In this document: positions 6,406-64,000 of the stretch, one piece after another
Layout of the letters: every line of letters starts with the position of its first letter
Position numbering within the stretch: the stretch's first letter is position 1
Assembly: GCA_039714075.1 (NCBI GenBank)
Contig: JBDLKA010000004.1
Span: 3,087 to 67,086 of the forward strand
Direction of reading: 5' to 3'
Length of the DNA stretch: 64,000 nt
Source of the DNA: Candidatus Krumholzibacteriota bacterium
Lineage (GTDB): Bacteria > Krumholzibacteriota > Krumholzibacteriia > LZORAL124-64-63
The notes under the pieces: generated by a model
What the model was told of the DNA's origin: nothing
Database searches by the model: none
What the model saw: only the letters and a program-made list of their open reading frames with translations
Made by a program: the position numbers and the translations under genes

Positions 6406-6680
6406 GGTGGGATATTCCCTTTCTTGGATATAATTTCTCCTATATAACACCTGGATTATCTTATCATTAATGAAAGATTGATGTCAAATGGATGCCATAG
6501 TTCATCAATTCCTCAAAAAGCTCCACCTGTTGCCGTCCCCAGGCAATTTTCCTGGCCGAAACACAGGTCACAATTCCAATGCCACAACCAATTCCTTGAA
6601 ATCCCCTCCCCGAAATGGGAGAATGATTTTTCGAAATCAGACTCGCCCATTCTGCCCCATATCATCCAAGGAGAACCCTC

Positions 6681-18004: not shown

Positions 18005-18036
18005 GAGCCCCGAGTGCAAACCCGGGGCTCTTTTTT
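18005..18036 (+). terminator. Rho-independent terminator (8-bp GC stem GAGCCCCG/CGGGGCTC followed by T6)
   Basis: Hairpin gagccccg-agtgcaaacc-cggggctc followed by tttttt, located 28 nt after the stop of the small secreted protein gene. Confidence 0.55.
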
Positions 18037-26000: not shown

Positions 26001-26038
26001 ACAGAAGGGGCGCCCTTGCGAGCGCCCCTTCTTCTGTC
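26001..26038. terminator. Bidirectional terminator hairpin between convergent genes (10-bp stem GAAGGGGCGC/GCGCCCCTTC)
   Basis: Perfect 10-bp GC-rich stem with an 8-nt loop and T-rich flanks on both strands. Lies between the kinase-3 stop (25972) and the actP stop (26054). Confidence 0.4.
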
Positions 26039-33750: not shown

Positions 33751-33810
33751 CAAGAGCTTCCACCTGACAAAGCCAGCATTTCCCCAACTCCCCCATTGTT
33801 CCCACAACCA

Positions 33811-33836
33811 GAAAAGTGCCCCCGGGGGCACTTTTC
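33811..33836. terminator. Bidirectional terminator: perfect 26-bp palindrome GAAAAGTGCCCCCGGGGGCACTTTTC
   Basis: A perfect inverted repeat with A/T runs on both sides. Lies between convergent genes (33750 stop on +, 33874 stop on -). Confidence 0.55.
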
Positions 33837-33873
33837 TCAAGTGATATCAGGGATAGGCTGCAGGGAGGTAAAA

Positions 33874-41885: not shown

Positions 41886-42058
41886 TGTCGGGACCTCCCT
41901 CCAGGACCTGTTTTTCTGTTCACGCTCCTTTTGCTATTCTCACCAAGATCCGAGCGGCTCAGGCCAATTGCGTCCGGGGCTCCAGTGGATCTTGGACCTT
42001 GTTCTGAATTTTGAATTTCACTTTACTTTAACACATGTGGTGGACCCGATGTAATAAA

Positions 42059-42180
42059 ATGGTTGTGCCAAAGCAATTGTGTCCGTCGCTGGATTGCAGG
42101 TCATGGTGATGGAAATAAGCAGCCACCGTAACAAAGTGACAAAAGGAGGTGCCCCGGGGCACCTCCTTTTGATGTTTGGA
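42059..42180 (+). ncRNA. Candidate small RNA / conserved structured intergenic element, copy 1 (~122 nt, ends in a terminator hairpin AGGAGGTGCCCCGGGGCACCTCCT plus T-tract)
   Basis: ~75-80% identical to 58323..58447, including an exact 24-nt block GGATTGCAGGTCATGGTGATGGAA and the terminal GC hairpin plus TTTTGATGT. Not explained by any CDS. The overlapping ORF 42079..42651 is antisense to a real gene and not conserved as coding. Confidence 0.3.
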
Positions 42181-42224: not shown

Positions 42225-42968
42225 CTATTTCCTGATCTTGTCCAGCAACCCCTTCGCCTGCTCCTCCACTTCGTCCTCCACCAGGTCCCGGGCCTTGTTC
42301 TCGATTTCCGCCCGGGCGATCTCGTCGGTGGCCTTCCTGGTCAAGGCACTCAGCACGGCCTTGGCGATCTCATCGGGCAGGGCGCCCTGGGCGCCGCCGA
42401 TGTCATCCAGTCGGATCGCGGGCAGATCCAGGGACCGCTTTTCCAGTCCGAGTGCGGAAGCATCGACTTCGATGTGTCCCTTTTCGAAGATGAACCGCTT
42501 GATCCGGATCCGCTTCACGTCGTCTTTCTTCTGGTCGCCGCCGTCGCCGCCACCGCTGGATGAACCGGCGTGCTGCTGCACGTTCTTCTGCAATTCGCCG
42601 ATATTCGAGGAGCCCTTCTTCATGAACTCGGCGTTGACCACCGGCGCCTGAACGCGGATCTCCTCGATCACGATCGGGTCCTCACGGAGGCTTTCCAGAT
42701 CGATATCCACGGTGATCTCATCGAGGGTGAAGGCCTGGCGGGTGCCAAAGGCCTCGGGACTGGCGATGCTGAGCCCGGCAATGGTGGCGCGGCCATCGCG
42801 CAGGGAAATGTCGACGCCCGAAACGGCGACGTCGGTCTCCGTCACGGTGCTGCCCTGGTCCTCGATGACCTTGGCGACAATGGAATTGAGGTTGGTCAGG
42901 AAATAGAAAACGCCGCCGATTAAAACGAGCGCCAGGACGACGACGACTCCGATCAAAATCTTCTTCAT
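42225..42968 (-). CDS. Hypothetical membrane-anchored protein (N-terminal TM, charged helical C-terminus), 247 aa
   Basis: MKKILIGVVVVLALVLIGGVFYF TM anchor. Plausible codon usage. No recognisable catalytic motifs. Confidence 0.55.
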   Translation of the reverse strand: MKKILIGVVVVLALVLIGGVFYFLTNLNSIVAKVIEDQGSTVTETDVAVSGVDISLRDGRATIAGLSIASPEAFGTRQAFTLDEITVDIDLESLREDPIVIEEIRVQAPVVNAEFMKKGSSNIGELQKNVQQHAGSSSGGGDGGDQKKDDVKRIRIKRFIFEKGHIEVDASALGLEKRSLDLPAIRLDDIGGAQGALPDEIAKAVLSALTRKATDEIARAEIENKARDLVEDEVEEQAKGLLDKIRK

Positions 42969-43132
42969 GAGAATGCTCCTAACCCTGCGGTCGGTTTGTA
43001 TGAGCTCCCCCGTACATATGGTAGCCGCGGTTGCCCATTCCTTGAAGAACGAAGTTGTTGATCAACCGGACTGATTCTGCCTGGTTATTTCCCTCGTTCT
43101 GCCAGGGCAGGTATGCAATCGTTATGCCCAAC

Positions 43133-43192: not shown

Positions 43193-44620
43193 TCACCTCA
43201 ACAGTATCGCCTTCCTCGTCTCGACCTTCCCCCCGATATCCACGCGGAAGAAGTATTCGCCCGAGGGTACCGCACGGCCGGATGAATCACGCCCCTGCCA
43301 TTCGACGGAATGTTTGCCGGCCGCGTATTGCCGGTCAGCCAGATTCGCGATCAGGCGTCCCCGAATATCGTAGACCAGCACGCGAACCTGATGCGTCTGG
43401 TCGGTGGAAAAAGAGATGGCCGTGGTGGGATTGAAGGGATTCGGCGTGATCCGGATGTCCTGATCGCCGAACAGACCCTTGTTCCCGCCCCACGCGGCCT
43501 CGATCATGTCCGCCCCGCTGATCGGCTGACCGTCATACGTTTCCCCGGTCAGCGAAACCTTGGTGTCGCCGCACTGGATACCGGAATCGGGAACGCGGAA
43601 GTGGAACAGCAGGTCCAGGTCGCCGTCTCCATCCACATCCGTTTCGTGACGGACAGGACCTTTAAGGTTGGCGTGAGCTTCTGCAGTTTCAGCGGGGCCG
43701 AAAAGAACGGTGGCATGATCGACGTTGGTCGCATCGAATTCAGCCGTCGTGAGCAGGGCCACCGGCACAACATGGTTGGCGTGAGGGTTGCAATTGACCC
43801 GGTTTTCATCACTATCGGGTTTCACATCAATGCCGACGTCGATGGTTGCGGGCGCACACTGCGGAATCTGCACCTGGTCCCAGGTCGGGTCGAAATCATC
43901 ACTGTCCGGGGTGCTGCCGCGGGTGGCGTCATTTCCGTTGAACGAGCTGTCGAAAGCGGTCTGACCGGAGCCCTCATCAAACTCCCAGCAGGCCACCAGA
44001 CCCGCTTCGTCGCCATCCAGTTTGGAACACATCATCTGCTGGATCTGCTCCGGCGTGCGCGCGACCTCCCAGAGACGGACCTCATCGATCGAGCCGATGA
44101 TCCCGTCGACGAAATTGCCGAAACGCCCAATCATCACGTCCCTGTCGTACGCGTGGATTTGACCGGACGCTGCCCTGCTGCTCACTTCCACGCCATCCAC
44201 GAAAAGGCGCATCGCCGTTCCGTCATAAGTTCCGGCGACATGCACCCACTGGCCATAGGGCAAGACATCGAGTGGGGACCTCAGCAAGTGGCGCGTACCG
44301 TTGATCGCCAAATCGAACAAAAACTCCTGCGACCGTGAGTTGATGCCCAAATGGTACTGGTAATAGGGAGCGCTGTGACTGGTGAAGGGCTTTTCAATGA
44401 GGGGGCAATTGCCCAGATCCCAGAATTGTCCGGGGATCATGCACCACACTTCGATGGTAATGGCATCGGCGGGATCGAGGGTCTCGTTTCCCGCGGCGTG
44501 CAGATAGTCTCTCCCGTCAAACTGGAGCACATGGTTTGCACCGGCGGCATCCGAACCTGAAAAAAGGAACACGGCGAAAAGAAAAATCAGGAAAGCGCTT
44601 CGGCGCAGATATGGATACAT
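43193..44620 (-). CDS. Secreted LamG / concanavalin-A-like lectin domain protein with a T9SS type-A C-terminal sorting domain
   Basis: The ORF runs 43193..44674. The signal peptide MYPYLRRSAFLIFLFAVFLFSGSDAAG starts at 44620, after a GGGGG RBS. Laminin_G_3-like segment (LQFDGRDYL..GQWVHVAGTYDGTAMRLFVDGVEV..DEVRLW). C-terminus ..GEYFFRVDIGGKVETRKAILLR. Confidence 0.8.
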   Translation of the reverse strand: MYPYLRRSAFLIFLFAVFLFSGSDAAGANHVLQFDGRDYLHAAGNETLDPADAITIEVWCMIPGQFWDLGNCPLIEKPFTSHSAPYYQYHLGINSRSQEFLFDLAINGTRHLLRSPLDVLPYGQWVHVAGTYDGTAMRLFVDGVEVSSRAASGQIHAYDRDVMIGRFGNFVDGIIGSIDEVRLWEVARTPEQIQQMMCSKLDGDEAGLVACWEFDEGSGQTAFDSSFNGNDATRGSTPDSDDFDPTWDQVQIPQCAPATIDVGIDVKPDSDENRVNCNPHANHVVPVALLTTAEFDATNVDHATVLFGPAETAEAHANLKGPVRHETDVDGDGDLDLLFHFRVPDSGIQCGDTKVSLTGETYDGQPISGADMIEAAWGGNKGLFGDQDIRITPNPFNPTTAISFSTDQTHQVRVLVYDIRGRLIANLADRQYAAGKHSVEWQGRDSSGRAVPSGEYFFRVDIGGKVETRKAILLR

Positions 44621-44856
44621 GGTCAACCCCCGAACAATTTGAATGGAATATGAAGCAGAACCCGATGTTGCCAAACCGAAGGGTGATTATACCTCATATC
44701 CTACCGAAAGTAAATGAGTTGGAAGGGAAAACCCGATTGATATTTCCGGCTGGAACTCGAGACATGGACTTGCCGGCAGACCCGGTTTATAGTTAAATTG
44801 GATCTTTTTACTCTTGGTTGTCCGGTTTTCAGAACACCTTCCCAAGGAGACGAACA

Positions 44857-45936: not shown

Positions 45937-48900
45937 TCACTTGACCAGGGACATGCGCCGGGTTTCGGTATGATCCCCGGCCTCGAACCGGTACAGATAG
46001 ATTCCCGCAGGCGCCGGTCGACCCGCGTTGCTCCTGCCGTCCCATTGTTCTTCGTGGCGGCCGGCGGTCATTTTCCGGCCGTCTATCAGGGTGCGGACGG
46101 TCCGTCCCGCGATATCGAATACGGTCAACCGGACCGGGACATCCTTCGCCAGGTCAAACCGGATGACCGTGCTGGGATTGAACGGGTTGGGATGGTTCGG
46201 GAAGAGAGCCGAATGCAACGGCGTGGTTGCATCGGGCACTTCCGAAACCATGTTCACCACGACCGCCGGGCTCTCGTTCCCCGCAAAGTCCGTTGCTGTC
46301 AGGAAGTAATAGCCCGGATTCGGCCCTGATATGGTCAGCATGGTCCCGGTAGTGTGGTCGATCACGACCGCGGTCCCGTCCAGGGTCGGATTGGCGGACC
46401 CGTAGACCGTGAAATAGCGGAAATCCGGCTCGTCATTTTCGTTCCATGCCAATTGGTCGGCCGCCGCCAACACGAATCCCGTCGGAACCGAGGGCGCCAG
46501 GTTGTCCACGGAGTAGCCACTGTCGGGCGCGGCATCGAAATAGACCCCCGGCGTGGCGGTGCGCGCCCGCACGAAAAATACCGACTCGTACATGCCGTCG
46601 GTGATGGTCGAGTCGCCCAGGGTGGGCACGACGACGGCGTACTGGTCCTCGGCGTCGGCCGGCACGGTCGTCACGAAGTGCCAGTCACCGGGCGGGTAGG
46701 CCTTGTCCCATTCCGCCACGCCACTTTCCATGGATGCCAGGCTGTCGATGCGGCGGTAGACGGCATACTCGGTTATCGGCATCGCACTGCCGACAAAGTC
46801 ATAACCGGAACGCTCCCACGCGAGGCTCACCTGGCGGCCCTGGTCCCCGGGCACGTCGACGATCGCATCGACGGTCGGAATATCGTACAGCCACTCGAAT
46901 TGAAGGTTGGAACAGCTGGGATTCATCTGCGGCCGAACCACAGTGTGGTTGGAGCGCCATTTCAACTGGGTACCGGGGCTGGCCAGGTTGTACCAATTGC
47001 CGTCGGCGGCCACCGGCGCATAGGCCGTGCCCCCGTCGGAGCTCAGTTCCCAGGTAACATCTTCGGTCTGGATCGTGGACAAACGAGCCTGAACGGCATT
47101 GCTGGAAAGGGTGGCGAAAACCGTCGAATTGGCATAATTCGACCAGGGATCGAACATTCTCTGGGAAACGGCCACGGTTTCCATCCCGTACGTGCTATTG
47201 CCGAGGTAAACGTGGTTTCCGGCCACGGCCACACTAGCCGCCGTGTAGGAACCGTCGTAGGCGTCGATCAGGGTTGGAATGGCCGGGTCCGTGATGTCCA
47301 ACCGGACAATGCCGTGGAGTTGCACCCCGACGAACAGGTCGTCACCCCTGACCCGGACGTCCAGCGCGGAGGCGGATGTTGCATAGGTTCCGATTTGCGA
47401 CGGCACCGCCGGATTGGACACGTCCAGCACGACGACACCGTTGTACGAGTCCGCCACGTACGCCTGGTCGCCGTCAACAGCCACATCATAGGCATATGAT
47501 GTATCGAATACCGTAACCGGGGAAAAGCGAACTCCGGCACTCGGAAAAAATTCCAGGACCTGGATGCCGGGCGCCCCCAGGGCGACGTAGACATAATTAC
47601 CCTCGATATCCAGACTCCAGCCCGTGCCCGCCAGCCCCATCGGGCCCATGACTCCGATGGCGGGCAAGGAACCGAGACTGAAGGCATAGATGCTGCTGCC
47701 CCCGAGCAGAGCGGCCCTGTCCCCTTCGATGGCGATGGCGCTGAAGGAACCAGCGGTCTTGTTGGCCAGGGTCGGATTGGACAGGTCGCTGATGTCGAGC
47801 ACCACGAAGCCCTGAATGGCATCGGCGATGAAGGCATAATCACCGGCTACTTCCACCTGCTTGCAGCTCCAGGTGTAAGCCGGGTCCTTGAATTGGCCCA
47901 GGAGATTCGGGTTTTCCGGATCGTTGATATCATAGATGTAAAGTCCGTTGTTCCCCGCGGCAACGAACGCCACATCGCCTACGATGGCAGCGTGGGTGTA
48001 TCCCACGGCGCCGGCTTGGCCGCCAACGGACTTCAGTGGAATCGTCTTGGCCGCCTGATAGCCGTAAAGGAGGCCGCCTGTGGCAGCCAAATAGGCGGAG
48101 TTTCCGGCCACGGTGACGGCCATGCCCGAAGCGGTGGCCGTACCCGTGGTGATCGTCTGAATCGAAGCGGGATCCCGGACGTCGAGCAGGGTGAGTCCGT
48201 CGGTGTAGTCCGCTACATATGCGTATCCGCCCACAATGCATACGTCACGGGAGTCGCCGCCCGTTGCTGCGGCGCCGACCTGGACCGGAAGCGCCGGGTC
48301 GGTGACGTCCAGCACCAGGAGTCCCCCGGATCCGTCGGCGACATAGGCGGTATTGCCTTCCACGAAAAGGCCGTAGGCATTGCCGGGCGTGATCTTGAAA
48401 CCGACCTGCAACATGAGGGACGGATCGCTGACGTCGAAAATCCGGTAATGGTGGGTGTAGCTGACCGAATGAAGAAGGTCTCCGTCCAGAACCAGGTCTC
48501 TGACCGTGGAGGTGGTCGTTATCGTGTCCAGTACGTTGGGTGCCGTGGGGTCCATGATGTCGATCGCATGGATTCCACCGTAATCACTCGCCAGAAACGC
48601 GGTATTCCCGTCGACAACTACATCATAGGCGGATCCGTACGGGTCGACATTGCCTATCAAAACCGGCGTGGCCGGGTCGGAAATATCGAGAATCTGCAGA
48701 CCGCTCCCGCCGTCCGCCAGATAGGCGATGTTGCCGTCGACTGCAATCCCGTATGAGGTGCCGGTTGTGTTGTAACTTCCTGCTATCGAAGGCGAGAGCG
48801 GATTACTGATGTCCATGACCACCAGGCCGGCCGTGTATGCGGCAATGTAGATGTAGTTTCCATCCACCACCATGTCCCGCGGTTGTCCGGTAAGTATGGC

Positions 48901-49104
48901 CTGGAAATCCCAGTCCATGTAGAAGGGGCCCATACGGATTTCCCCGTCCGCCGTCGACCAGACCGCCGAGGTGCTACCTTTGTAAGTGGTTGTGGTGAAA
49001 TCCTCTTCAAAAAAGCCGGCCCCCACCGCCAGGGTCGGCATGAGGCCGGCCGTCACGATGGCCAATACCAGCGCGCAACCCAGTTTCTTCATTCTCGAAT
49101 TCAT
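45937..49104 (-). CDS. Large secreted LVIVD-repeat beta-propeller protein with FN3-like region and a T9SS type-A C-terminal sorting domain (~1055 aa)
   Basis: The ORF runs 45937..49284. The signal peptide MNSRMKKLGCALVLAIVTAGLMPTLAVGA starts at 49104, after an AAGGGGAGA RBS. More than ten LVIVD repeats (e.g. AYLADGGSGLQILDISDPATPVLIG). C-terminus ..GIYLYRFEAGDHTETRRMSLVK. Confidence 0.85.
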   Translation of the reverse strand: MNSRMKKLGCALVLAIVTAGLMPTLAVGAGFFEEDFTTTTYKGSTSAVWSTADGEIRMGPFYMDWDFQAILTGQPRDMVVDGNYIYIAAYTAGLVVMDISNPLSPSIAGSYNTTGTSYGIAVDGNIAYLADGGSGLQILDISDPATPVLIGNVDPYGSAYDVVVDGNTAFLASDYGGIHAIDIMDPTAPNVLDTITTTSTVRDLVLDGDLLHSVSYTHHYRIFDVSDPSLMLQVGFKITPGNAYGLFVEGNTAYVADGSGGLLVLDVTDPALPVQVGAAATGGDSRDVCIVGGYAYVADYTDGLTLLDVRDPASIQTITTGTATASGMAVTVAGNSAYLAATGGLLYGYQAAKTIPLKSVGGQAGAVGYTHAAIVGDVAFVAAGNNGLYIYDINDPENPNLLGQFKDPAYTWSCKQVEVAGDYAFIADAIQGFVVLDISDLSNPTLANKTAGSFSAIAIEGDRAALLGGSSIYAFSLGSLPAIGVMGPMGLAGTGWSLDIEGNYVYVALGAPGIQVLEFFPSAGVRFSPVTVFDTSYAYDVAVDGDQAYVADSYNGVVVLDVSNPAVPSQIGTYATSASALDVRVRGDDLFVGVQLHGIVRLDITDPAIPTLIDAYDGSYTAASVAVAGNHVYLGNSTYGMETVAVSQRMFDPWSNYANSTVFATLSSNAVQARLSTIQTEDVTWELSSDGGTAYAPVAADGNWYNLASPGTQLKWRSNHTVVRPQMNPSCSNLQFEWLYDIPTVDAIVDVPGDQGRQVSLAWERSGYDFVGSAMPITEYAVYRRIDSLASMESGVAEWDKAYPPGDWHFVTTVPADAEDQYAVVVPTLGDSTITDGMYESVFFVRARTATPGVYFDAAPDSGYSVDNLAPSVPTGFVLAAADQLAWNENDEPDFRYFTVYGSANPTLDGTAVVIDHTTGTMLTISGPNPGYYFLTATDFAGNESPAVVVNMVSEVPDATTPLHSALFPNHPNPFNPSTVIRFDLAKDVPVRLTVFDIAGRTVRTLIDGRKMTAGRHEEQWDGRSNAGRPAPAGIYLYRFEAGDHTETRRMSLVK

Positions 49105-49297
49105 CTTGGTCTCCCCTTGTCCTTGCTGTGGATGCTCCCAACCATGCCTGCTCTCATCAAACACCATCCGGAGTCGGATTAAGTTGCAGGGGATTGAGGA
49201 TTTGGCAGGGAAGTGTTTGTGGGGGGGGTTTCTTCCGGCCGCCAAACCCCCGCGGGCTTGGCGGCCGGATGGAATGAAAATCAAAAAGAAACGCGGA

Positions 49298-51355
49298 CTA
49301 CTTCAACAGCGTGATCCTCTGGACGAAGCTCCGGCCACTTGCCTGCAACCGCAGGAAGTAGACCCCGCTCGCCTGCCTGCCGGCGTTCCAGGTCAAGCTG
49401 TGATGGCCGGCTGTCTGCTCCTGCGCCACCAACGTCCGGACCTTTTCGCCGGCCACGTTGTAGACACTCAGCTCGACCGGACCGTCGCGGTCCAGGGTAT
49501 ACGCGATCTTCGTGACCGGGTTGAAGGGATTGGGACTGACACCTTCGATGCCGAGGGTGCCCGCGACCTGGTCAAGGACGGGCGGATCGGCGTGCATCAG
49601 CAGGAGGACGTCCGACCCTGAATATTCTTCGCCGCCCATTTCGAAAGTCAGCTCCAACTCGACGCAGAATTTCTTGGTCGGCACCACATCGGGCGGCAGC
49701 ATGGCCAGGATGGCCGCCACCACTTCCTGGGTATCGAACTTGATGGTCATATCGAGGAAGCCGTCCGGACCATCGGTCGAGCAGCTGTTGCAATCCAGCA
49801 ACTCGCCGTCGTAGGGAGTGGCGACATCCTCGAAAGCGGTCCGAATCGGCACTACGAAGGCGTTTTCCAGATCCTCTTCACCCATCCTGAGAGGCAGCGG
49901 CAGATCCGCGGTCACCGGCGCTACCCCTTCCAACCGGATCGAAGCCGGATCAATCATGGTCACGTCCACTTCGTCCGTGCCCAGGATAGCCACCGGCAGC
50001 ACACCCTCACCCGTTGCGTTGACCGGATTGGGACAGGAGGTCGGCTTGATGTCGACGAAGATATCGGGAGGCTCGAGCTCCGGTACTTCGGTGGCGTTGA
50101 GGATATTGATATACCAGGCGGTCGCGAGGGGGCCATACCAGGCCGAGTACCCGCTCCAGCTCCCATCGGGGTTTTGAATGTCCACCAGGTATTGGCAGTA
50201 GTGGGAGTACCAGTCGTCCGCGGCCGAGGCCAACGGATCCTCGGCAAAGCCGATCGTATAGCCGCCGGTGGCAGCCGCCATCCCCGTACCGACCAGAATC
50301 GGTTGTGCCAGGGAAAAGACCACATCAGTCAGGCCGTAGACGGACAATCCCTTGTAGACGGCCCACATGGCATAGGGGTGATTGAAGTTGCCGTACCAGG
50401 TGCCGCTGGGGAAGGTGTTCCACCGGCCGTTGATGAAGTTGATGGCGGCCTGGACGGACGGATGCGAGACCGCCCGGCCGACGACCGCAAACTCCAGCAG
50501 CAGGCCGCCGGTCTTGCTTACGTTGACATATGACGTGGGAGAGCTGTAGCCGGAACCGCCACTGGTGTCGTTCTGGACATAATCAGCCCAAAGTTCCAGT
50601 TCGTCCCGAACGTATTGCGGAGCCCCCAGTCCCCAGTCGGCGGCATACAGGTAGGGCAGGGCGCCCCACTGCGCCGTGGAATTGTCGGAGCTGCCGTAAT
50701 TGGCGTCGTAGCGCCAGCCGCCCCGGTAATTGCCTGTGTTGGGCTCGACCTGCCCCCAGCTGAACCAGTCGACCAGGTCCTGCATGAGTTGGGCCCAGGT
50801 CAACCCGCTGACCGCTGTAGAACCCATTCCGATGACGGTGTTTTTGCCCAGCCGCTCCCCGAGCGCATAAACGGTCGGGACACAAATCCCGGTCGTGTAG
50901 ACGTTGCGGTTGGGAACACCGATGTTGAAATAGATGGCCTGGTGGTTGCCGCCGTCGTTGGTGAAGATGCCGTCATTATTGTAGTCCTCGGCATAGCGTG
51001 TGTAGACGGCCAACTCAACGCCGAAGCGACTGTCCACTGCCGCCCGGTTGAGCATGTACAGGACCGCCCGGCCCACGACATCCCCGTAGTTGACGCCGTT
51101 CATTTCAAAGTCGACGCCGGGCAGCCATTCCTCTTCGACAAAAGCCAGGGTTGCCGCCGCGGTGGTGGCCAGGGTCCCGTCGTTGCTCAAGTTCCAGTAA
51201 CCTTCGCCTCCGCTGACGACCTGGGTTTGGGCCAGCCAGACCAGGGCGGTGTCGATGGCCGCCTGTTTCTGCTGCTCGGTAGCGGCCAGAGCGCTGCCCC
51301 CAAGTACCAGGACAAGCAGGGCAACGGCAATGATGGTGAGAGAATAGTTCCTCAT
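49298..51355 (-). CDS. Secreted protein with prenyltransferase/squalene-cyclase-like (alpha/alpha-toroid, QxxxGxW-type) repeats and a T9SS type-A C-terminal sorting domain
   Basis: The ORF runs 49298..51376. M8 at 51355 follows a GAGGGGGG RBS. Signal peptide. PFTB/SQCY-like repeats (LVWLAQTQVVSGGEGYW, IQNPDGSWSG). C-terminus NPFNPVTKIAY..GVYFLRLQASGRSFVQRITLLK. Confidence 0.65.
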   Translation of the reverse strand: MRNYSLTIIAVALLVLVLGGSALAATEQQKQAAIDTALVWLAQTQVVSGGEGYWNLSNDGTLATTAAATLAFVEEEWLPGVDFEMNGVNYGDVVGRAVLYMLNRAAVDSRFGVELAVYTRYAEDYNNDGIFTNDGGNHQAIYFNIGVPNRNVYTTGICVPTVYALGERLGKNTVIGMGSTAVSGLTWAQLMQDLVDWFSWGQVEPNTGNYRGGWRYDANYGSSDNSTAQWGALPYLYAADWGLGAPQYVRDELELWADYVQNDTSGGSGYSSPTSYVNVSKTGGLLLEFAVVGRAVSHPSVQAAINFINGRWNTFPSGTWYGNFNHPYAMWAVYKGLSVYGLTDVVFSLAQPILVGTGMAAATGGYTIGFAEDPLASAADDWYSHYCQYLVDIQNPDGSWSGYSAWYGPLATAWYINILNATEVPELEPPDIFVDIKPTSCPNPVNATGEGVLPVAILGTDEVDVTMIDPASIRLEGVAPVTADLPLPLRMGEEDLENAFVVPIRTAFEDVATPYDGELLDCNSCSTDGPDGFLDMTIKFDTQEVVAAILAMLPPDVVPTKKFCVELELTFEMGGEEYSGSDVLLLMHADPPVLDQVAGTLGIEGVSPNPFNPVTKIAYTLDRDGPVELSVYNVAGEKVRTLVAQEQTAGHHSLTWNAGRQASGVYFLRLQASGRSFVQRITLLK

Positions 51356-51604
51356 GAGAATCCCCCCTCGATTCATGGTAAGAACGATTTTTGAAGATTA
51401 AGGCCGGTAGGAATCCTCCGTGAGAATCGTCACCTCCCTTGCTCCCGTTCCTTGAGGGGGAGAAGTAGATTGGCCTGTCTTGAAATCCGCTGGGCGAGGG
51501 GAGGGCAAGGCGGAGACAATAACACAAACTCAATTTTAAAAACAACAAATTTTACCAGAATTGTCCACAATGTCAGTATGACAAAGGCCGGCCGCCAAAT
51601 CGGA

Positions 51605-55629: not shown

Positions 55630-56574
55630 CTATTTGATCAACGTCATCCTCTTCGTCTCGACATAGTCGCCGGCCTCGAGGTGGTAGAAGTAGACGCCGG
55701 CAGGAACGATTTGGCCGTTCATGTCTCTTCCTCGCCAATCGACTTCGTTACGGCCCCGAACTGCGATCTCATCGTTCATCAGGACATTCACCAAACGTCC
55801 GGCTACGTCGAATACGCGCAGACTCACTTTCTGTTCTTTCGGCAGGCTGAAGGCAATCGTCGTTTGGGGATTGAAGGGGTTAGGGACCGCATCCAGAAGT
55901 GCGGTCCTCTCCGGCATCGGCAGACTTGCGCTCACGGCGTTGACCGTGAACGAGGTCGGAAAAACCGGCTGGGTAGAGTTATTGCCGGTCCAGTTCGCCG
56001 GGTTGTTGATGGCCGCCAACAACTCGGCGGCGGTGCCGGTGGTGGGACCGGTATAGCTGTAGTTGTCCATCTCCAGCGCCATCGCCACGTTCGCGCCCGA
56101 GAGGGCGGCGGGCAGGGCCGAAGTGTTGGAGGAGGTCGCGTCTGCCTCCCAAGCCGTGCCGTTATCGTGGTAGCCGTAGAGGAGCGTGCCCGTAAGGACC
56201 CCGCCGCCGTCGATGGAACCCTCGAAAGCGAAGATCTGGTCGCCGCTGGATGAGAGGTTGAAGCCGCCATCAACCCCCGGCATGTAGACCACAGTACCGG
56301 CGGCGAGGCCGCCGGCAGGTACGGTGTAGGTGACGACACCCTCACCAATGCGGAAGACAGTCGTATTGCGCCACCCGTTGTCCGTGAACGATATCTCGGT
56401 GCCTGCGTCGATGGTCGTCAAAGCGACGAAGGCGAAGGCCTTCGCCAAGGGGCTAATGTCCGACCGGAACCCGACGATGGCGACGTCACCAGAGGTGAGC
56501 TGGGCGTTGGTGATCGTCGCGGAGGCCGTGATCAGCCCGAAGACCAGAAGCCCAATGACCAGACGAGAATTCAT
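55630..56574 (-). CDS. Secreted hypothetical protein with a T9SS type-A C-terminal sorting domain, 314 aa
   Basis: Signal peptide. The N-terminal domain is unassigned. C-terminus NPFNPQTTIAFSL..GVYFYHLEAGDYVETKRMTLIK. Its start overlaps the stop of the FHA-histidine kinase gene by 4 nt. Confidence 0.7.
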   Translation of the reverse strand: MNSRLVIGLLVFGLITASATITNAQLTSGDVAIVGFRSDISPLAKAFAFVALTTIDAGTEISFTDNGWRNTTVFRIGEGVVTYTVPAGGLAAGTVVYMPGVDGGFNLSSSGDQIFAFEGSIDGGGVLTGTLLYGYHDNGTAWEADATSSNTSALPAALSGANVAMALEMDNYSYTGPTTGTAAELLAAINNPANWTGNNSTQPVFPTSFTVNAVSASLPMPERTALLDAVPNPFNPQTTIAFSLPKEQKVSLRVFDVAGRLVNVLMNDEIAVRGRNEVDWRGRDMNGQIVPAGVYFYHLEAGDYVETKRMTLIK

Positions 56575-58238
56575 TTTGTTCCTCCTAAAGAAATGCCGTC
56601 CATCTGTAACCTGACCGAAAACGTCGCACCCTTGTCGCTATTGTTTTCGGCCGTGACCGAACCCCCATGCCTTTCGACGATCTGCTTCACGAGCGCCAGC
56701 CCGAGACCGGTGCCGTCCTTATCGTAAGCCGTGGCATTGCTGGCCCGGAAGAACTCATCAAAGACCTGGTCGACTTCGTCCGTTGGAATCCCTATGCCCG
56801 TATCCCGGATGGTGATGACGATCTGATCATTTCGGACCACACCGCGGAGAGCGACCTTCTCGTGCTCCGGGGTATACTTGATGGCGTTGAAAAGCAGGTT
56901 GGTGATGGCTTCCGTAAGGGAAAGTTCGTCTCCGGTCATCGTGTCGATGTCCGGGTCCACATCCGCCTCAAGCGTGATGTTCTTGTCCGTGGCCCGCGGC
57001 CGGACCGTATCCAGGGACTTGGCGATGGCCTCCTTGAGGGAGAACGACGCCACCTCCATCCGCCCGCTCAACCTGAGCCTTGTCAGGCGCAGGAGATCGG
57101 CAATGAAGGACAGGACCTGGGTGGTCCGCCGCGAAGCTCGCTCCACCAACTCGGCCTTCTTTTCCGGCGACCCGATCCCTGAATCGTTGGCGGCGATCGC
57201 GAGACAGCTTTTTATGACACCGAGGTGCCCCTTGATGTCATGGGTGACGCGGGACACGTACTCGTCCTTGATGCGGTCTTTCTCCTCGAGCTCCCGGTTG
57301 GCCTGTCTCAGCGCCTGTTCCTTTTCCTGCAGCTCACGGAAGAAGAGGTTTTTCTGGACGAAGTTGATCTGGCGCGAGATCGCTTCGATGAAATCGAACA
57401 TCGATTCCGGCACATTCTCTTCCGGAAGATCGACGTAGAGAAGATCGACGGAATCGGCGGTCTTGTTGACGCGGGCCGCATAGACGTTGTGCGGCGGCAT
57501 TTCACCGGCGAAGGTCAGCTTCAGGTCCTGAGTGGACGCGGGATGGCTCTTGGCCATGACCGGAGTCGGGGTGAGGCAGGCCGATTCCAGAACCCGGTGA
57601 GAGAACCGCACGGGGGCAGAGGCGCCCGGACGATTCCCGTCCCCCCGTGGGACCTGGTGGGCCAGCACTTCGGGTTCACCAGTAAAGGTCTCGCCGTCGA
57701 GAGAGAGCCGCACGATGGCGACGAAAGTCTGGATGGACTCCGCCAGCTGATCGCACGCCTGGGCGTACAGATCCGCGGAGTTAGACATCTTCAGCAGGTT
57801 CTCGGTGAAGGCGTTGAAGGTGGGAAGCAGCAGGGGTCCCAGGATGGTGGCGGGATCGGCCCGGTAAGAAATGACCTCCTCCTGGCTCCCCCGGTCGACG
57901 ACAGAAAACGACTGCCGGTCCTGGCCGTCCTCACCGGACCCGGCCGACTCACCCCCCAGGGCCAACGTGAAACAGGCGAGCGATATTTTCAGCCCGGGAA
58001 CCATCTCCTGGGTCTTCATCCGCCGGCCCTTGAGGAATATACCGTTGCGGCTGTCGAGATCCTCGATGATCCAGCTCTCATCCACGGCGCGGTAGATACG
58101 CGCATGACGTCGGGAAACGCTCTCATGGTTGAGGATGACGTCGTTCATGGGATCCCGTCCCAGGCGGGTGCCGGCGGGATCCAGGACGACCTCTTTTGTT
58201 CCGGTGGGGCCGGAAATCGTAAGGGAGACTTCAGGCAT
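56571..58238 (-). CDS. FHA-domain-containing sensor histidine kinase (cytoplasmic), 555 aa
   Basis: N-terminal FHA domain (GRDPMNDVILNHESVSRRHARIY..IEDLDSRNGIFLKG). HisKA H-box VTHDIKGHLG. HATPase_c (NAIKYT, RDTGIGIP, GTGLGLALV). No TM. Confidence 0.9.
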   Translation of the reverse strand: MPEVSLTISGPTGTKEVVLDPAGTRLGRDPMNDVILNHESVSRRHARIYRAVDESWIIEDLDSRNGIFLKGRRMKTQEMVPGLKISLACFTLALGGESAGSGEDGQDRQSFSVVDRGSQEEVISYRADPATILGPLLLPTFNAFTENLLKMSNSADLYAQACDQLAESIQTFVAIVRLSLDGETFTGEPEVLAHQVPRGDGNRPGASAPVRFSHRVLESACLTPTPVMAKSHPASTQDLKLTFAGEMPPHNVYAARVNKTADSVDLLYVDLPEENVPESMFDFIEAISRQINFVQKNLFFRELQEKEQALRQANRELEEKDRIKDEYVSRVTHDIKGHLGVIKSCLAIAANDSGIGSPEKKAELVERASRRTTQVLSFIADLLRLTRLRLSGRMEVASFSLKEAIAKSLDTVRPRATDKNITLEADVDPDIDTMTGDELSLTEAITNLLFNAIKYTPEHEKVALRGVVRNDQIVITIRDTGIGIPTDEVDQVFDEFFRASNATAYDKDGTGLGLALVKQIVERHGGSVTAENNSDKGATFSVRLQMDGISLGGTK

Positions 58239-58322
58239 CCTGTCTACCTTTCCATCGCAAACGGTGAGACGGGTATTACTGATTTTGACTATACCATATC
58301 GATGGGGTTTTCCAGTAAGACG

Positions 58323-58447
58323 ATGGTTGTGGCTTCGAAATTGTGTTTCACACCGGATTGCAGGTCATGGTGATGGAATTCGGCGGCAACCACAACGAAA
58401 TGGCAAAAAGAGGTGTCCCCGGGGGCACCTCTTTTTGATGTATTGGA
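58323..58447 (+). ncRNA. Candidate small RNA / conserved structured intergenic element, copy 2 (~125 nt, ends in a terminator hairpin AGAGGTGTCCCCGGGGGCACCTCT plus T5)
   Basis: A paralogue of 42059..42180. It sits in the divergent region between the FHA-HK start and the cupin gene, and no protein-coding gene on either strand ends here that the hairpin could terminate. Confidence 0.3.
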
Positions 58448-58583
58448 GACAGTCAGACAAATTCCGGATATGCGAAGTCCATTTTTTCAATGATACAGGA
58501 CATCTTTTGTGTTATTTTGGGTGATGTCGGGAATGGGAGAGCAAGGCCATTTCCTGATGTTCATGGTTTTGAAGGGAAAAACG

Positions 58584-59012
58584 ATGCGAAAAATGTTGTA
58601 TGCGGTCCTCGTAAGTTTGTTCATCGGCGGGTTGTCGATCGACCCGGCCACGGCTTCGGACCACGATAAGAATCCGGCGGACGAATCCGGGTCCGGCGTG
58701 AATCTGGAGAGCTTGTTGAAGGCGGAGCTTGAGGGATTCGAGGGAGCCGAGGTCATCGTCAGCCGGGTGACCTTTCCTCCCCACTCCTCGCTGCCGAAGC
58801 ATTGGCATCCCGGCGAGGAATTCGCCTACATTCTGGAGGGTTCGGTCATCCTGTGGCAGGACGGCGAGGACGATCTCGTGGGCCAGGCGGGAGACGTCAT
58901 CAAGATCCCCCTGAAGAAGGTGCACACCGCCCGTACCGGGGACGAGAGCGCCACCGTCCTGGTGTTTCGGGTTCACGAACAGGGCAAGCCCGAGCGTGCC
59001 CTCGTCGAGTAA
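58584..59012 (+). CDS. Secreted cupin-domain protein
   Basis: The ORF runs 58509..59012. The signal peptide MRKMLYAVLVSLFIGGLSIDPATA starts at 58584. Cupin_2 motif HWHPGEEFAYILEGSV..GDVIKIP. Confidence 0.75.
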   Translation: MRKMLYAVLVSLFIGGLSIDPATASDHDKNPADESGSGVNLESLLKAELEGFEGAEVIVSRVTFPPHSSLPKHWHPGEEFAYILEGSVILWQDGEDDLVGQAGDVIKIPLKKVHTARTGDESATVLVFRVHEQGKPERALVE

Positions 59013-59072: not shown

Positions 59073-60836
59073 TCACTTGAGCAGCATCATCTTCCTGGTC
59101 TCTACCAGGTTGCCCGTTTGGAGCTGGTAGAAATAGATACCGCTGGAGCGACCGCGGGCATCCCACGTCACCGCGTGCATGCCTTCACCCAGGACACCAT
59201 CGACCGGGGTATCGACCAGACGGCCGCGTGCGTCATAGACGCGCAGGGCGGTGTATCCCTCGTGCGGAAGCACGAACTGGAACACCGTGGTCGGATTGAA
59301 CGGATTCGGATGATTGGCCAGCTGGACCGCACCGGTCGCGGGCAGGCCGCGGCGGTACACGTCGCCGCTCTCGCAGCTGCGTGTGGTCACGTTCGAGGCC
59401 GGATCGTAGGTCAGCGAAGCGTGGGTAACGTCGGTCACCTCGAAGCACCACTCGCCCGAGGGGTTCTTCAGCTTGGGCGTCGAGAAGGACGCGACGCCGG
59501 TCGAACCTGTCAGGGAGCTCAGGGTCCCGCTGTTGGGGCCGTCATAGCTGACGGTCACCGTGGCGCCGGCCGCAGGCGCACCGCCGTCGTCGACGATGGT
59601 GACACTGCAAAGGCCGGTGTTGTTGGGCCCGGCGACCTTGCGGCTGACGGCAATGTCAGAGACGTACATCGTGCTGCCGCCGCTGCCCGGCTCGGTGACC
59701 GTGATGTACCCGTTCCTGGTCAGGGTGTCCGAACCGTCGCCGTTGGCCACCGTCAGACTCACGTTGTAGCTGCCCGCGGCGGTGTAGGTGTAGCTCGGAT
59801 TCTGGGCGGTCGAGGTGCCGCCGTCGCCGAAGGTCCAGTCCCAGCTCGTGGGCCCGCCGGTGGACTCGTCGCTGAACGCCACGGTCAGCGGGTAGTCGCC
59901 GCTGGTGGGGGTCCCGCTGAAGGCCGCCGTCGGTCCGGTGGGCGTCGTGCCGCCGTACATGGTCGGGCGGTAGAGGGCCATCTGCTGGTTCATGCGCGTG
60001 GTCTGGTCGGCCGTGAACTCGTACATGCAGTAGTCGTCCGTGTAGTCCATGAAGTTGGTGATGGGGTCGATGCCCGGAGCGGAGCAACTGTCGCGACCCT
60101 CGGGGCACCCGTAGGCCGGGGAGCTTTCCTGGGGAGTGTCGTCGCAGTAGTCGTTGGGCTCCGTGCAGCCGTCCTGGAAGGTGTGATACAAGCCGAGGAA
60201 GTGACCCGTCTCGTGGGTGGCCGTGTCTCCCTCGTTGTAGGGATCGGCCCAGCCGCCGGGGACCGAGCCCCAGAGGCAGACGACGCCGTGCAGGTAGCTG
60301 TCCTCGGGATACATGTCGGGGAAGGTCGCGTAGCCCAGCAGCCCGCCGCCGATGTCGCAGAAGTAGAGGTTGTAGGTGGTGGCCGGATCGATGGCCAGGG
60401 CCTGCTTCATCTGGACCATCTGGTTGCTGCCGTAGCGGTGGGTGGACCACCTGGTATTGTAGGTGCGGTCGATGCTTGCCAGGGAGAAGCTGAACCCGGT
60501 GCCCTGGTAGGCGGCGTTGAGTACGTCCATCTGGTCGTAGATGTAGGAATCGGGCACGTCGGCGTAGCCGTCATCGTGGGCGACGACGTGGATGGCGACC
60601 GGAATCACGACGCCGGCCTTGTCGCGCATGAAGCCGCTGGCCTTGAGCCAGGCATCGACCGCCTGGGCGTTCCGTTCAATGTCGTCGGCGGTCGGGACAG
60701 GCGTGGAGCAACGGACCCCCTGGACCACGGCTCCGGCGGAATTCTGATAGGTGATGTCGGCGGCCATGACGGCCGTCCCGAGCATCAGGATAGATAGCGA
60801 CAACAACATGAATCCCAATGGCTTGAATCTCTCCAC
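59073..60836 (-). CDS. Secreted M43-family (pappalysin/cytophagalysin-like) zinc metalloprotease with a PKD domain and a T9SS type-A C-terminal sorting domain
   Basis: GTG start after an AAGGAG RBS. Signal peptide. HETGHFLGLYH zinc-binding motif. PKD (DWTFGDGGTSTAQNPSYTYTAAGSYNVSLTV). C-terminus NPFNPTTVFQF..GIYFYQLQTGNLVETRKMMLLK. Confidence 0.85.
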   Translation of the reverse strand: MERFKPLGFMLLSLSILMLGTAVMAADITYQNSAGAVVQGVRCSTPVPTADDIERNAQAVDAWLKASGFMRDKAGVVIPVAIHVVAHDDGYADVPDSYIYDQMDVLNAAYQGTGFSFSLASIDRTYNTRWSTHRYGSNQMVQMKQALAIDPATTYNLYFCDIGGGLLGYATFPDMYPEDSYLHGVVCLWGSVPGGWADPYNEGDTATHETGHFLGLYHTFQDGCTEPNDYCDDTPQESSPAYGCPEGRDSCSAPGIDPITNFMDYTDDYCMYEFTADQTTRMNQQMALYRPTMYGGTTPTGPTAAFSGTPTSGDYPLTVAFSDESTGGPTSWDWTFGDGGTSTAQNPSYTYTAAGSYNVSLTVANGDGSDTLTRNGYITVTEPGSGGSTMYVSDIAVSRKVAGPNNTGLCSVTIVDDGGAPAAGATVTVSYDGPNSGTLSSLTGSTGVASFSTPKLKNPSGEWCFEVTDVTHASLTYDPASNVTTRSCESGDVYRRGLPATGAVQLANHPNPFNPTTVFQFVLPHEGYTALRVYDARGRLVDTPVDGVLGEGMHAVTWDARGRSSGIYFYQLQTGNLVETRKMMLLK

Positions 60837-61065: not shown

Positions 61066-64000
61066 TCACCTGACCAGCATCATCTTCTGCAACAAATCCC
61101 CCGCACCGGTCTCCAGTTTCGAAAAGTAGACTCCCGAAGCAACCGCCCGGCCGCGACCATCGGTGCCGTTCCACACAACCTCGTGTTCGCCGGCTGGCAT
61201 GACCTCGCCGAGCAGCGTCTTCACCAGTTGGCCGCGGGCATCGAAAACCCGCAATTCCACAGGTCCGGATGACGGCAGACTGAAGCGGATGCCCGTCATG
61301 GGGTTGAACGGATTCGGAGCGATCCTCATGGACAATTGCGGCCGCGGGGTGTTCCCGTTGTCCAGCGCGAATTCCCCGTCGTTCAGACCGGCCACCGCCA
61401 TCGCCACGTCACCGGAAGCCGGCAAGGTTGGGTGGATCTCCCCCTCGAGGACCACCGAGGGGGGTTGCCCTTCCGAACCGCTGCCGGATCCCACCCAGAA
61501 GTAGGCCGGCTCCGCATCGGTAACCGAAACGCGCATGTGCACGAGTTGGAGAGGTCGATCGGAAAGCGTGCGGCGGGTTACGGGATACCCCACGACCAGG
61601 CCGTCGCCGGCAGTGAAATCGAGACCGGTTCCCACCAGGTCCTGTTGGTGGACGACGACGTTTCCGCTCACCCGAATCCGCAGGTCGAAAGCCTCGATGC
61701 CGGTCTGGGCGGCGGAACCGTGCAGAACGACATAGGCATCGATCTGCTCGCCCGGGTCAAGCATGCGCGAGCTCCAGATTCCCGCCGCGTCGAAAACAAC
61801 TCCCATGGTTCCAACGAGCCGGGTCCCGGCCGACCCGCCCCCGGCCACGATCGTCTTGGCCGGAACCGGGCACGACACTCCCATGACCGGACCGAGCTTG
61901 GCCACATCGGACAGGTTGATCATCCCGTCCCAGACGAAATCCGCGGCATAGTCGTACGCTTCACCGAAATAGATGCCGGCAAAATCGGCCACGTCATTCA
62001 GGGACACCTCGAGGTCGCCCGTGATGTCGGCGCCGTTGACGAAATACTCGAGGCCGTCAAGCCCGCCCGGGTAGCTTGTCGTGTTCAACAGCGGATCATC
62101 CACGCTCACCTGCAGCAACTCGCCCGGTCCGCTATGGCCGCCGGCGAAAAGAACTCCGCTGATGGTCGTTGCGCCGGTTGCGTCCGTCGGGCCATCAGCC
62201 GTCAAGGGAGAACCGGGGCATTGGGTCCAGCCGCCGTACTGGGATCTGACGCTTATCTTTTCGGCCGGGAAGCCCACGACCGGATCGCCGAACCCGTCGA
62301 CAACCTGCACACCAATGGCAGCATCCACTTCGATTGGCGCCGCACCGGATACGCCGTCCCAAGACAGGGCCGCGGTCAGCGGATGGCCCAGGCCGTCGGG
62401 CGTCGCGAAGAGGGAAACCGGTCCGCCGAGGGCCTGCACGGGGAAGACGGTCACGTTGATCTCGCCCGCAGGTTCGGGTTCTGATCCGGCGGCATAGTTC
62501 TGCAGGATGTCCTCCAGGGGCAAGGAGCGATCGAACAGGGCGACAAGGTGAAGCTCGCCGAGCCAGGGCCGGTCACCCGTCAGTTCGTTGGCCACTCCCA
62601 GGCGGTAGGATCCATCCCAGTTCGAAAAATCCCCGGTTGTCTGACCGTTGACCCGTTCCACCCCGTCGACGAAAATCCTGGTCAACCCGGCGCTGTTGCG
62701 AGTGAACACCACATGGGACAATTCCGTGGTCAGAGTCCCTACCAGGGTCGCGAGTGCGGGTTTCCCGTTCAGGTCGGTGGTCGTCGACCGCAGCCGCACT
62801 TCGTAGACGTCCGAGGCCTCTCCGTAGACACCCTGCCCGAGGGTGAAATTCCGCGTCCCGGTATCAGGCGAGAGGGTCACGATGCGGGCGGGTCCGTTCT
62901 GGGTGAGGTTGGCCGGCTTGATCCAGGCCTCGATGGTGATCTCGTTGGTGGCCGTCACCGCGTCGATGAGTTTGGTCGAAGCTCCCGCCGTGCCGATCAC
63001 CGTCGAGCCGTTGACGGACAGGGCGCCGGCCAACCAACCCACGGCGCCGGGGTCGTCGATGACCAGGTCGGCCGGAGTCCCCACTCCGGACAAGTCGTTG
63101 ACCGTATTCCCGCCGCCCTCGTTGAAATCATACAGGACGACCTGGCCCGCCGTGGCCCGGGACCCGGGTACCAGCACGGTGAGGACGGCCTCATCGCTGA
63201 CATCGCCGCCCAGCCCGTTGGTCACCACGCAGCGGTAGAGATCGCCGTCGTTGACGGCCGCAAGCGGTGGGGTCGTGTAGGTGGAATCGGCGGCGGCGGG
63301 AATATCCATCCCATTGACCTGCCACTGGAAGGAAAGCGGGTCGGCACCGACCGCGACGACACCAAAAGTCGCGGTGGCTCCTTCGAGGGCGAACGTGCTC
63401 GAAGGCTGGGTGACCACACTGGCGGGGACATTCGAATAGTCCACGTACCGTACGACCACGCCCGGCCCCGGCCAAAGGTATTCCGCGCCATGGTGGGAAC
63501 TGGCGGAATAGACCGTGACGGTATTCGTGCCGTTCTGCAGAATGTTCGTGGGGATTTCGATCTGGTCGAACGAATAGGAATGGTCCTCGCCGAATACGGG
63601 GGTGGTCCAGCCGTTCACCCGCGTCCAGTGGACCTCTCCGGGCTCGGCTTCACCATTGAGCCCGTTCCAGGTGGCGACAAGAAGGCGCGCCGACTCGGCG
63701 TTGACCAGATCGTGCCCTGCCGGAATGACGAAGTCGCTGGAGCGGGTCCGGCCGGCCCTCACCCAGTATTTCTCCGGAACACCGGTCGGACGGTACATCG
63801 CGACACTGATTCCGGGGCGGCTGAGGGTCAGGCCCGACACCCGGTCGGTGACGAACCACAAACCATTCGCATCCCGGATGCGGGCGACGACTTCCATCCC
63901 GCCGGCCGGCTGGTCGGGAATCCAGGAGTTGTCCCAGGACACCGAGAAGGGCGAAGAGATCGTCGTGCCGATGTGATTGCGGATCATCACCGAGGTGTCG
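61066..64000 (-). CDS. Large secreted multi-domain protein (Ig-like / LamG concanavalin-like domains) with a T9SS type-A C-terminal sorting domain. Partial: the N-terminus lies beyond the window end.
   Basis: The ORF track starts at a GTG at 63990, but the frame stays open to position 64000 and no signal peptide is present, so the gene continues off-window. LamG_3-like segment (..YRLGVANELTGDRPWLGELHLVALFDRSL). C-terminus NPFNPMTGIRFSL..GVYFSKLETGAGDLLQKMMLVR. Confidence 0.8.
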   Translation of the reverse strand, partial: DTSVMIRNHIGTTISSPFSVSWDNSWIPDQPAGGMEVVARIRDANGLWFVTDRVSGLTLSRPGISVAMYRPTGVPEKYWVRAGRTRSSDFVIPAGHDLVNAESARLLVATWNGLNGEAEPGEVHWTRVNGWTTPVFGEDHSYSFDQIEIPTNILQNGTNTVTVYSASSHHGAEYLWPGPGVVVRYVDYSNVPASVVTQPSSTFALEGATATFGVVAVGADPLSFQWQVNGMDIPAAADSTYTTPPLAAVNDGDLYRCVVTNGLGGDVSDEAVLTVLVPGSRATAGQVVLYDFNEGGGNTVNDLSGVGTPADLVIDDPGAVGWLAGALSVNGSTVIGTAGASTKLIDAVTATNEITIEAWIKPANLTQNGPARIVTLSPDTGTRNFTLGQGVYGEASDVYEVRLRSTTTDLNGKPALATLVGTLTTELSHVVFTRNSAGLTRIFVDGVERVNGQTTGDFSNWDGSYRLGVANELTGDRPWLGELHLVALFDRSLPLEDILQNYAAGSEPEPAGEINVTVFPVQALGGPVSLFATPDGLGHPLTAALSWDGVSGAAPIEVDAAIGVQVVDGFGDPVVGFPAEKISVRSQYGGWTQCPGSPLTADGPTDATGATTISGVLFAGGHSGPGELLQVSVDDPLLNTTSYPGGLDGLEYFVNGADITGDLEVSLNDVADFAGIYFGEAYDYAADFVWDGMINLSDVAKLGPVMGVSCPVPAKTIVAGGGSAGTRLVGTMGVVFDAAGIWSSRMLDPGEQIDAYVVLHGSAAQTGIEAFDLRIRVSGNVVVHQQDLVGTGLDFTAGDGLVVGYPVTRRTLSDRPLQLVHMRVSVTDAEPAYFWVGSGSGSEGQPPSVVLEGEIHPTLPASGDVAMAVAGLNDGEFALDNGNTPRPQLSMRIAPNPFNPMTGIRFSLPSSGPVELRVFDARGQLVKTLLGEVMPAGEHEVVWNGTDGRGRAVASGVYFSKLETGAGDLLQKMMLVR

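Follow-up and report, generated by a model that had tools for sequence, protein, structure and literature searches.

In Vibrio, Qrr1-5 are paralogous small RNAs (sRNAs) of ~100 nt that share an invariant core and a terminator and have true sigma54 promoters, and qrr1 is divergent from luxO. In Bacteroides thetaiotaomicron, FopS and GibS are likewise paralogous sRNAs, and the FopS consensus has been deposited in Rfam (PMC11697453). The FopS RNAs were shown to pair near the start codons of outer-membrane and secretion-related mRNAs (PMC11697453). For Krumholzibacteriota, an uncultured phylum of the FCB group, we found no regulatory RNA described in the literature, and the only paper found that names this phylum together with small RNAs concerns variation of the CsrA protein (PMC13443453).

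Here, we analyzed a 64-kb stretch of Krumholzibacteriota DNA (hereafter, the window) and found at 58323-58440, on the + strand, an intergenic element of ~115 bases that occurs twice in the genome. We propose that this element and its paralogue each encode a non-coding RNA of ~115 nt, made from the + strand as a unit of its own, a reading of the sequence to which we give about an even chance of being correct.

The duplicated element and its neighbors

The element at 58323-58440 (copy 2), whose predicted sRNA body of ~115 nt starts with a 5' stem-loop domain, continues through an A-rich linker and ends in a terminator, lies between a gene for an FHA-domain histidine kinase (FHA-HK; 56571-58238, - strand; Pfam FHA and HATPase_c) and a gene for a secreted cupin (58584-59012, + strand; ATG at 58584, signal peptide). 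The FHA-HK gene is divergent and begins 85 nt from 58323, and the cupin start codon is 147 nt past the terminator hairpin, which agrees with the initial annotation, where these distances were given as 85 nt on the opposite strand and ~140 nt downstream. The FHA-HK protein is 100% identical to a Candidatus Krumholzibacteriota MAG protein at NCBI. Beyond copy 2, the next - strand gene ends at 59073, on the far side of the cupin gene. The window is unusually dense in genes for large secreted proteins with C-terminal FlgD_ig or Por_Secre_tail (T9SS-type) sorting domains, which are found on the - strand at 4156-6404, 38886-41885, 43193-44674, 45937-49284, 49298-51376, 55630-56574, 59073-60836 and 61066-63990; this set includes FG-GAP, LVIVD and Laminin_G_3 proteins and an M43 peptidase.

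BLAST, MAFFT and a repeat finder agreed on one paralogue at ~42051-42180, on the same strand as copy 2 and 16 kb from it, within which the element itself (copy 1) spans 42059-42174 (+ strand). The two copies were identical at 92 of 118 aligned columns (78%; 77% over 133 nt), and the remainder of these 118 columns comprised 14 transitions and 10 transversions, in addition to one 2-nt indel. A covariance model derived from this pair and applied with filters off to the whole 64 kb gave 139.4 bits for copy 2 and 135.7 bits for copy 1 (139 and 136, rounded), and its other matches, at 35 bits or less, were unrelated palindromic terminators. The copies share an invariant 24-mer (GGATTGCAGGTCATGGTGATGGAA), located at 58355-58378 (+ strand) in copy 2, which is present in both copies and nowhere else in the window (chance expectation 0.00); at the overall divergence of the copies, a stretch of 24 identical positions has p = 0.03. 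Thus, the designation of this locus as the second member of a family was confirmed by a full paralogue at 42059-42174, by the invariant 24-mer and by the covariance-model scores.

According to the repeat finder, this is the sole intergenic repeat family within the window. Two repeats of another kind lie inside genes. A 300-nt direct repeat of 89% identity (19917-20216 and 22218-22517) is shared by the adjacent - strand genes 18072-20762 and 20763-23093 and points to a recent tandem gene duplication, and a 48-nt tandem repeat of two copies with 81% identity (17771-17866) is found within an ORF at 17687-17977 (+ strand).

The genes that flank copy 1 are unrelated to those that flank copy 2, and the duplicated part is an intergenic segment of ~165 nt only, in which homology reaches ~40 nt upstream of the element and into the divergent promoter. 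The segment might therefore be a non-functional relic, i.e., a neighbor's terminator and promoter that were duplicated or mobilized together and are now drifting, which would fit with the extension of homology into that promoter, with the count of only two full copies and one partial one, and with the finding that nothing is conserved in relatives (see below). Nevertheless, neither terminal inverted repeats nor a transposase were found at the element, the substitutions are unevenly distributed, as the 24-nt identity run indicates, and, as described in the next section, every change in a stem preserves pairing and both terminator hairpins are intact. We consider a relic distinctly unlikely.

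No + strand gene was found upstream of copy 1 or copy 2, and the predicted RNA is therefore not a 3' UTR. Furthermore, a convergent DUF748/AsmA gene (42225-42968, - strand) has its stop codon 50 nt past copy 1, and because this convergent gene follows, copy 1 cannot be a 5' leader. An ORF check found no CDS with coding character that ends at the hairpin of copy 2 (58404-58437) on either strand, in agreement with the earlier description of a hairpin that is not at the 3' end of any gene.

The element also contains an ATG at 58323 from which a 16-aa peptide could be translated (MVVASKLCFTPDCRSW in copy 2, MVVPKQLCPSLDCRSW in copy 1). The ORF is of equal length in both copies, has its stop codon at the same position and preserves the residues MVV..LC...DCRSW, as might be seen if the element were a small-protein gene. 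However, neither copy has a Shine-Dalgarno sequence ahead of this ATG, though the organism uses such sequences, as in GGAGGGAGG before the 999-aa gene and AAGGAG before the fadB-like gene of the window. All six of the differing codons are non-synonymous, with no synonymous differences, whereas the 10 identical codons are also identical at every third position, and nucleotide conservation runs on beyond the stop codon. The combination of non-synonymous changes with fixed third positions indicates constraint at the nucleotide level rather than at the protein level, and we regard a small-protein gene as extremely improbable. A second small ORF (MVMEFGG...) was rejected, as the copies part by a frameshift inside the terminator.

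Predicted RNA structure and the terminator hairpin

On the + strand, full-length copy 2 folded with an energy of -50.2 kcal/mol (z = -3.9), and in both copies the whole element folded ~10 kcal/mol better on the + strand than on the - strand. The 5' domain alone was not significantly more stable than shuffled sequences (z = -1.9 and -1.0). The predicted architecture is common to both copies and comprises an outer stem (P1), an inner stem (P2), an A-rich linker and the terminator, with P2 capped by a weak GGAUU-GCA-GGUC hairpin (P3).

The 5' strand of P1, GUUGUG (58326-58331, + strand), pairs with 58391-58396, which reads CACAAC in copy 2 and CGUAAC in copy 1. The one-sided changes in this 3' strand, A to G and C to U, both yield G·U wobble pairs, so that neither copy loses any of the six pairs. 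In P2, the 5' strand is a variable 9-nt block (58346-58354, + strand), UUUCACACC in copy 2 and UCCGUCGCU in copy 1, which differs between the copies at six of nine positions, yet in both copies pairs with the invariant GGUGAUGGA(A). The latter belongs to the invariant 24-mer (GGAUUGCAGGUCAUGGUGAUGGAA in the RNA), which makes up the apical loop, the weak P3 and the 3' strand of P2.

The stability of P2 was assessed by refolding the 45-nt segment with random 9-mers in place of the variable block, and then by enumerating all 729 states of the six differing positions. Hairpin energies were -12.1 kcal/mol for copy 2 and -14.6 kcal/mol for copy 1, compared with -6.9 ± 2 kcal/mol for random 9-mers (p = 0.02 and 0.003, respectively), and alternatives as stable as the observed sequence numbered one of 729 in the copy 2 background and three of 729 in the copy 1 background. 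On the - strand, the same segment reached only -4.3 and -2.3 kcal/mol. Because the P2 pairing depends on G·U pairs and is weak on the - strand, these results indicate an RNA-level constraint that is specific to the + strand. Over the whole structure, all nine substituted columns in paired positions keep the pair, seven of them by wobble changes and two as a single compensatory change of an A-U to a G-C pair. Standard pairs occupied 100% of the paired cells, compared with 44-59% when the partners were slid, although covariation statistics of this kind are weak when the structure is derived from the same two sequences that are compared, and one shuffle control was uninformative.

At the 3' end of the element, the initial annotation reported a GC hairpin followed by T5, and this is indeed what is present: the sequence at 58404-58437 (+ strand), CAAAAAGAGGTGTCCCCGGGGGCACCTCTTTTTG, forms a perfect 15-bp stem that includes paired A5 and T5 tracts, with its core at 58410-58431 and T5 at 58432-58436. 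The core of this hairpin has 9 bp, a 4-nt loop and an energy of -14.8 kcal/mol. The corresponding hairpin of copy 1, with its core at 42145-42166, has a 9-bp core of -17.5 kcal/mol followed by T4. Both copies thus have the GC-rich stem, the short loop and the run of at least four U residues of a Rho-independent terminator. Relative to copy 1, the copy 2 terminator has a single compensatory change, A-U to G-C, and a 2-nt indel that is likewise compensated; each of the hairpins is perfect despite ~22% divergence elsewhere. An automated scan for terminators passed over the + strand hairpin, as its T-run is absorbed by pairing between the A5 and T5 tracts on either side. Ordinary genes of the window also end in clean hairpin and T-run terminators, as at 18005-18030, where a terminator with T6 follows the ORF at 17687-17977, and at 43164-43140, which indicates that the organism uses intrinsic terminators. 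As the hairpin of the element is symmetric, it could potentially terminate transcription in either direction. The window also contains palindromic terminators with A- and T-tracts between convergent genes at 33810-33837 and 26003-26032, the first of which shares its GTGCCCCCGGGGGCAC core with the element's hairpin and follows CACAACCA, a sequence that is also found, on the opposite strand, in the 22-nt motif described below.

The initial annotation also suggested that the terminator might be an attenuator in the cupin 5' leader. Such a terminator-based attenuator or riboswitch would be in keeping with the location of the hairpin on the same strand as the cupin gene and 147 nt ahead of its start codon, and with a structured domain that precedes a strong terminator. 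However, copy 1 has no same-strand gene downstream and is followed by the convergent gene, no antiterminator pairing is conserved (an ACACC/GGUGU complementarity of copy 2 is absent from copy 1), and no Rfam aptamer matched even at E ≤ 10. In addition, a TG-extended -10 sequence, TGtTATTTT (58510-58518, + strand), is located between the hairpin and the cupin gene and is probably the cupin gene's own promoter, which would give a 5' UTR of ~60 nt. Our results therefore disfavor this part of the annotation, and we judge an attenuator to be very improbable.

In the stand-alone sRNA reading, a + strand transcript of ~115 nt would be made as its own unit and would fold into the outer stem GUUGUG/CACAAC and the inner stem, with a loop of ~13 nt that carries the invariant GGAUUGCAGGUCA. 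An A-rich linker and the Rho-independent terminator would follow, placing the 3' end near 58436-58440. The RNA would presumably act in trans, with the invariant loop and the 3' strand making contact with targets, which might be the start regions of mRNAs or an RNA-binding protein. The 24-mer is accordingly a candidate for the seed or for a protein-binding site. For the invariant loop (GGAUUGCAGGUCAUGG), the complement is AUGACCUGCAAUCC, which contains AUG, and this start codon within the loop complement suggests pairing at translation-initiation regions.

Divergent promoters and the 22-nt motif

The first part of the element is a 22-nt motif, TGGTTGTGGCTTCGAAATTGTG (58324-58345, + strand), of the form TGGTTGTGGC-N5-AATTGTG, which is also present in copy 1 (42060-42081) and at a partial third site (6569-6590, - strand). 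The third site has only the motif, as TGGTTGTGGCATTGGAATTGTG, and a divergent TG-extended promoter at 6596-6624 (+ strand); neither the 24-mer nor a terminator was found there, and its fold is not stable (z = 0.3). The site is flanked by a fadB-like gene (6681-8648, + strand) and by an LVIVD/T9SS cargo gene (4156-6404, - strand), and the latter is preceded by a strong promoter of its own, TTGACA-18-TAAGAT at 6487-6458.

A divergent promoter adjoins the motif at all three sites. At copy 2, a TG-extended -10 sequence, TGgTATAGT (58289-58297, - strand), is the probable FHA-HK promoter. The equivalent extended -10 at copy 1 is TGtTAAAGT (reverse complement of 42025-42033), and the equivalent promoter at the third site is TTGAAA-17-TGgGAGAAT. 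At three of three sites, a constant 29-30 nt separate the motif from the divergent extended -10, and the motif also lies 5-6 nt from the divergent -35, i.e., at about -42 to -63. Because it recurs at this fixed promoter distance and at a third site that is devoid of RNA-like features, the 22-nt block is possibly a DNA-level signal. It may represent the 5' end of the RNA, where it would supply the 5' strand of P1, an operator of the divergent promoter, or both.

These findings raise the question of whether the element is a promoter cassette at the DNA level, in which the conserved blocks are operator or upstream activating sites for the divergent - strand promoter (of the 999-aa FG-GAP/T9SS gene at copy 1 and of FHA-HK at copy 2), the hairpin is a bidirectional terminator that shields this promoter against transcription coming from upstream, and no stable RNA is made. 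The constant spacing at three sites, and a third site that possesses the motif and the promoter without the RNA-like part, would both be expected of such a cassette, as would the absence of a visible + strand promoter. Furthermore, the copy 1 hairpin follows a - strand gene, 54 nt after its stop codon, and could be the terminator of that gene, similar to the palindromic terminators between convergent genes at 33810-33837 and 26003-26032. On the other hand, the 9-nt block has changed at six of nine positions and still pairs with the 24-mer by means of G·U pairs, which are meaningless in duplex DNA, and the wobble-only transitions in the P1 partner strand would be left unexplained. The copy 2 hairpin has likewise been kept perfect though no - strand gene ends nearby. 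On balance, we find the promoter cassette unlikely, albeit a contender.

One weakness of the stand-alone sRNA reading concerns its promoter. The promoter scan and manual reading revealed no sigma70-type promoter on the + strand ahead of the element, whereas many genes of the organism are preceded by E. coli-like TTGACA or TG-extended TATAAT promoters. The initial annotation proposed TTGACT as a possible -35. This hexamer is present at 58286-58291 (TTTACT in copy 1) and lies at the right distance to serve as the -35 of a start near 58322. However, with a 17-nt spacer the -10 would read TTTTCC, and the hexamer overlaps the extended -10 TGgTATAGT of FHA-HK on the opposite strand. The proposal of an independent short transcript is still the best-supported reading, with indirect support from the strand-specific changes that keep pairs and from the context of the paralogue. 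Transcription of the + strand by means of an alternative sigma factor is possible. A sigma54 promoter was considered for the 22-nt motif, where the spacing of TGGC-N7-TTGT fits, and was rejected: by the criterion of GG at -24 and GC at -12, 12 nt apart, the -12 element is GT at three of three sites and the -24 element is GC in copy 1. No canonical sigma54 sites were found above chance in the window; the nearest sigma54-type -24/-12 sequence, GGGCATAACGATTGCA at 43114-43129 (- strand), upstream of the DUF748 gene, has two mismatches and is within chance expectation.

The two functions of the 22-nt motif might also be combined. The ~165-nt unit would then be a portable two-way cassette, with a TG-extended sigma70 promoter on one face and the sRNA gene on the other, and its first 22 nt would double as the operator. 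If this were true, a single DNA-binding factor would set both the transcription of the neighboring gene and the synthesis of the sRNA, and duplication of the unit would bring further genes under the control of this circuit, namely a T9SS cargo gene, the operon of FHA-HK and, by way of a decayed copy, the fadB-like/LVIVD locus. We consider this combined arrangement quite improbable.

Searches for relatives and comparison with known systems

At gathering thresholds, Rfam 15 gave no matches in the 64 kb, including for FopS, GibS, SRP and 6S RNAs and riboswitches, and at E ≤ 10 only terminator look-alikes or noise, and no aptamer, matched around the element. An exact 20-mer scan of 185,579 GTDB species genomes returned two matches, both by chance and within coding sequence. 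A degenerate 24-mer scan of JGI metagenomes returned 38, all of which were chance matches in coding sequence (rplS-like, pyrG-like) and none of which extended past the search pattern. In viral contigs, no match was found for the 24-mer, and six were found for a 17-base motif, which were judged to be chance matches from the size of the collection. The nearest sampled relatives have FHA-HK orthologues of 63-65% identity and DUF748 orthologues of ~75% identity, and in five of their loci (~92 kb) neither synteny nor, by nhmmer or by the covariance model run unfiltered, the element was detected. Sampling of the lineage is poor, its nearest relatives being at only 65-75% protein identity, and the element family appears to be lineage-restricted or fast-evolving. 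Among the features by which sRNA genes are recognized, we observed an intergenic location, a lack of coding potential and a structure kept by wobble and compensatory changes between two sequences; conservation in related genomes was not observed. Altogether, a new, lineage-restricted sRNA family is plausible.

A scan for target duplexes among ~40 initiation regions in the window yielded no credible target, the best duplex (p = 0.017 against shuffled seeds) being antisense inside a CDS that runs off the start of the window. A role as a CsrA sponge was set aside: there are two invariant GGA motifs, which are too few sites, and stem P2 occludes the second of them. Finally, the strings CAGGUCA...GGAA...AGCAGCCA of copy 1 resemble domain IV of the E. 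coli 4.5S SRP RNA, and the lengths are similar. A small SRP (4.5S) RNA was rejected, however, as there was no Rfam SRP match at E ≤ 10, AGCAGCC is not conserved in copy 2, and two copies at a distance of 16 kb would be odd.

If validated, the element would provide a first handle on post-transcriptional control in Krumholzibacteriota and a new Rfam family, in the form of an sRNA pair placed among T9SS cargo genes and beside an FHA-histidine kinase. With bidirectional intrinsic terminators between convergent genes, the element shares a symmetric hairpin and paired A- and T-tracts; it differs in that copy 2 has no convergent pair and in that the hairpin keeps a constant spacing to ~80 nt of sequence that is conserved and preserves structure. 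Like qrr1, which is divergent from luxO, copy 2 is divergent from a signal-transduction gene (FHA-HK), but the element has GT at -12 and, in copy 1, GC at -24, and hence no true sigma54 promoter, and it shows no sequence similarity to the Qrr RNAs.

FopS and GibS offer a further comparison. The element has no sequence or Rfam match to either RNA, and its invariant block is in a stem-loop, whereas the FopS seed is in a single-stranded 5' stretch (PMC11697453). FopS genes also have canonical housekeeping-sigma promoters, which the element does not, and number 12-15 copies rather than two (PMC11697453). Nevertheless, in both cases the known or proposed sRNA genes are multicopy and intergenic, the host belongs to the FCB group, an invariant block lies beside variable sequence, and the gene ends in a Rho-independent terminator (PMC11697453). 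The likeness to FopS extends to the AUG in the complement of the element's loop and to the surrounding region, which is rich in T9SS cargo genes.
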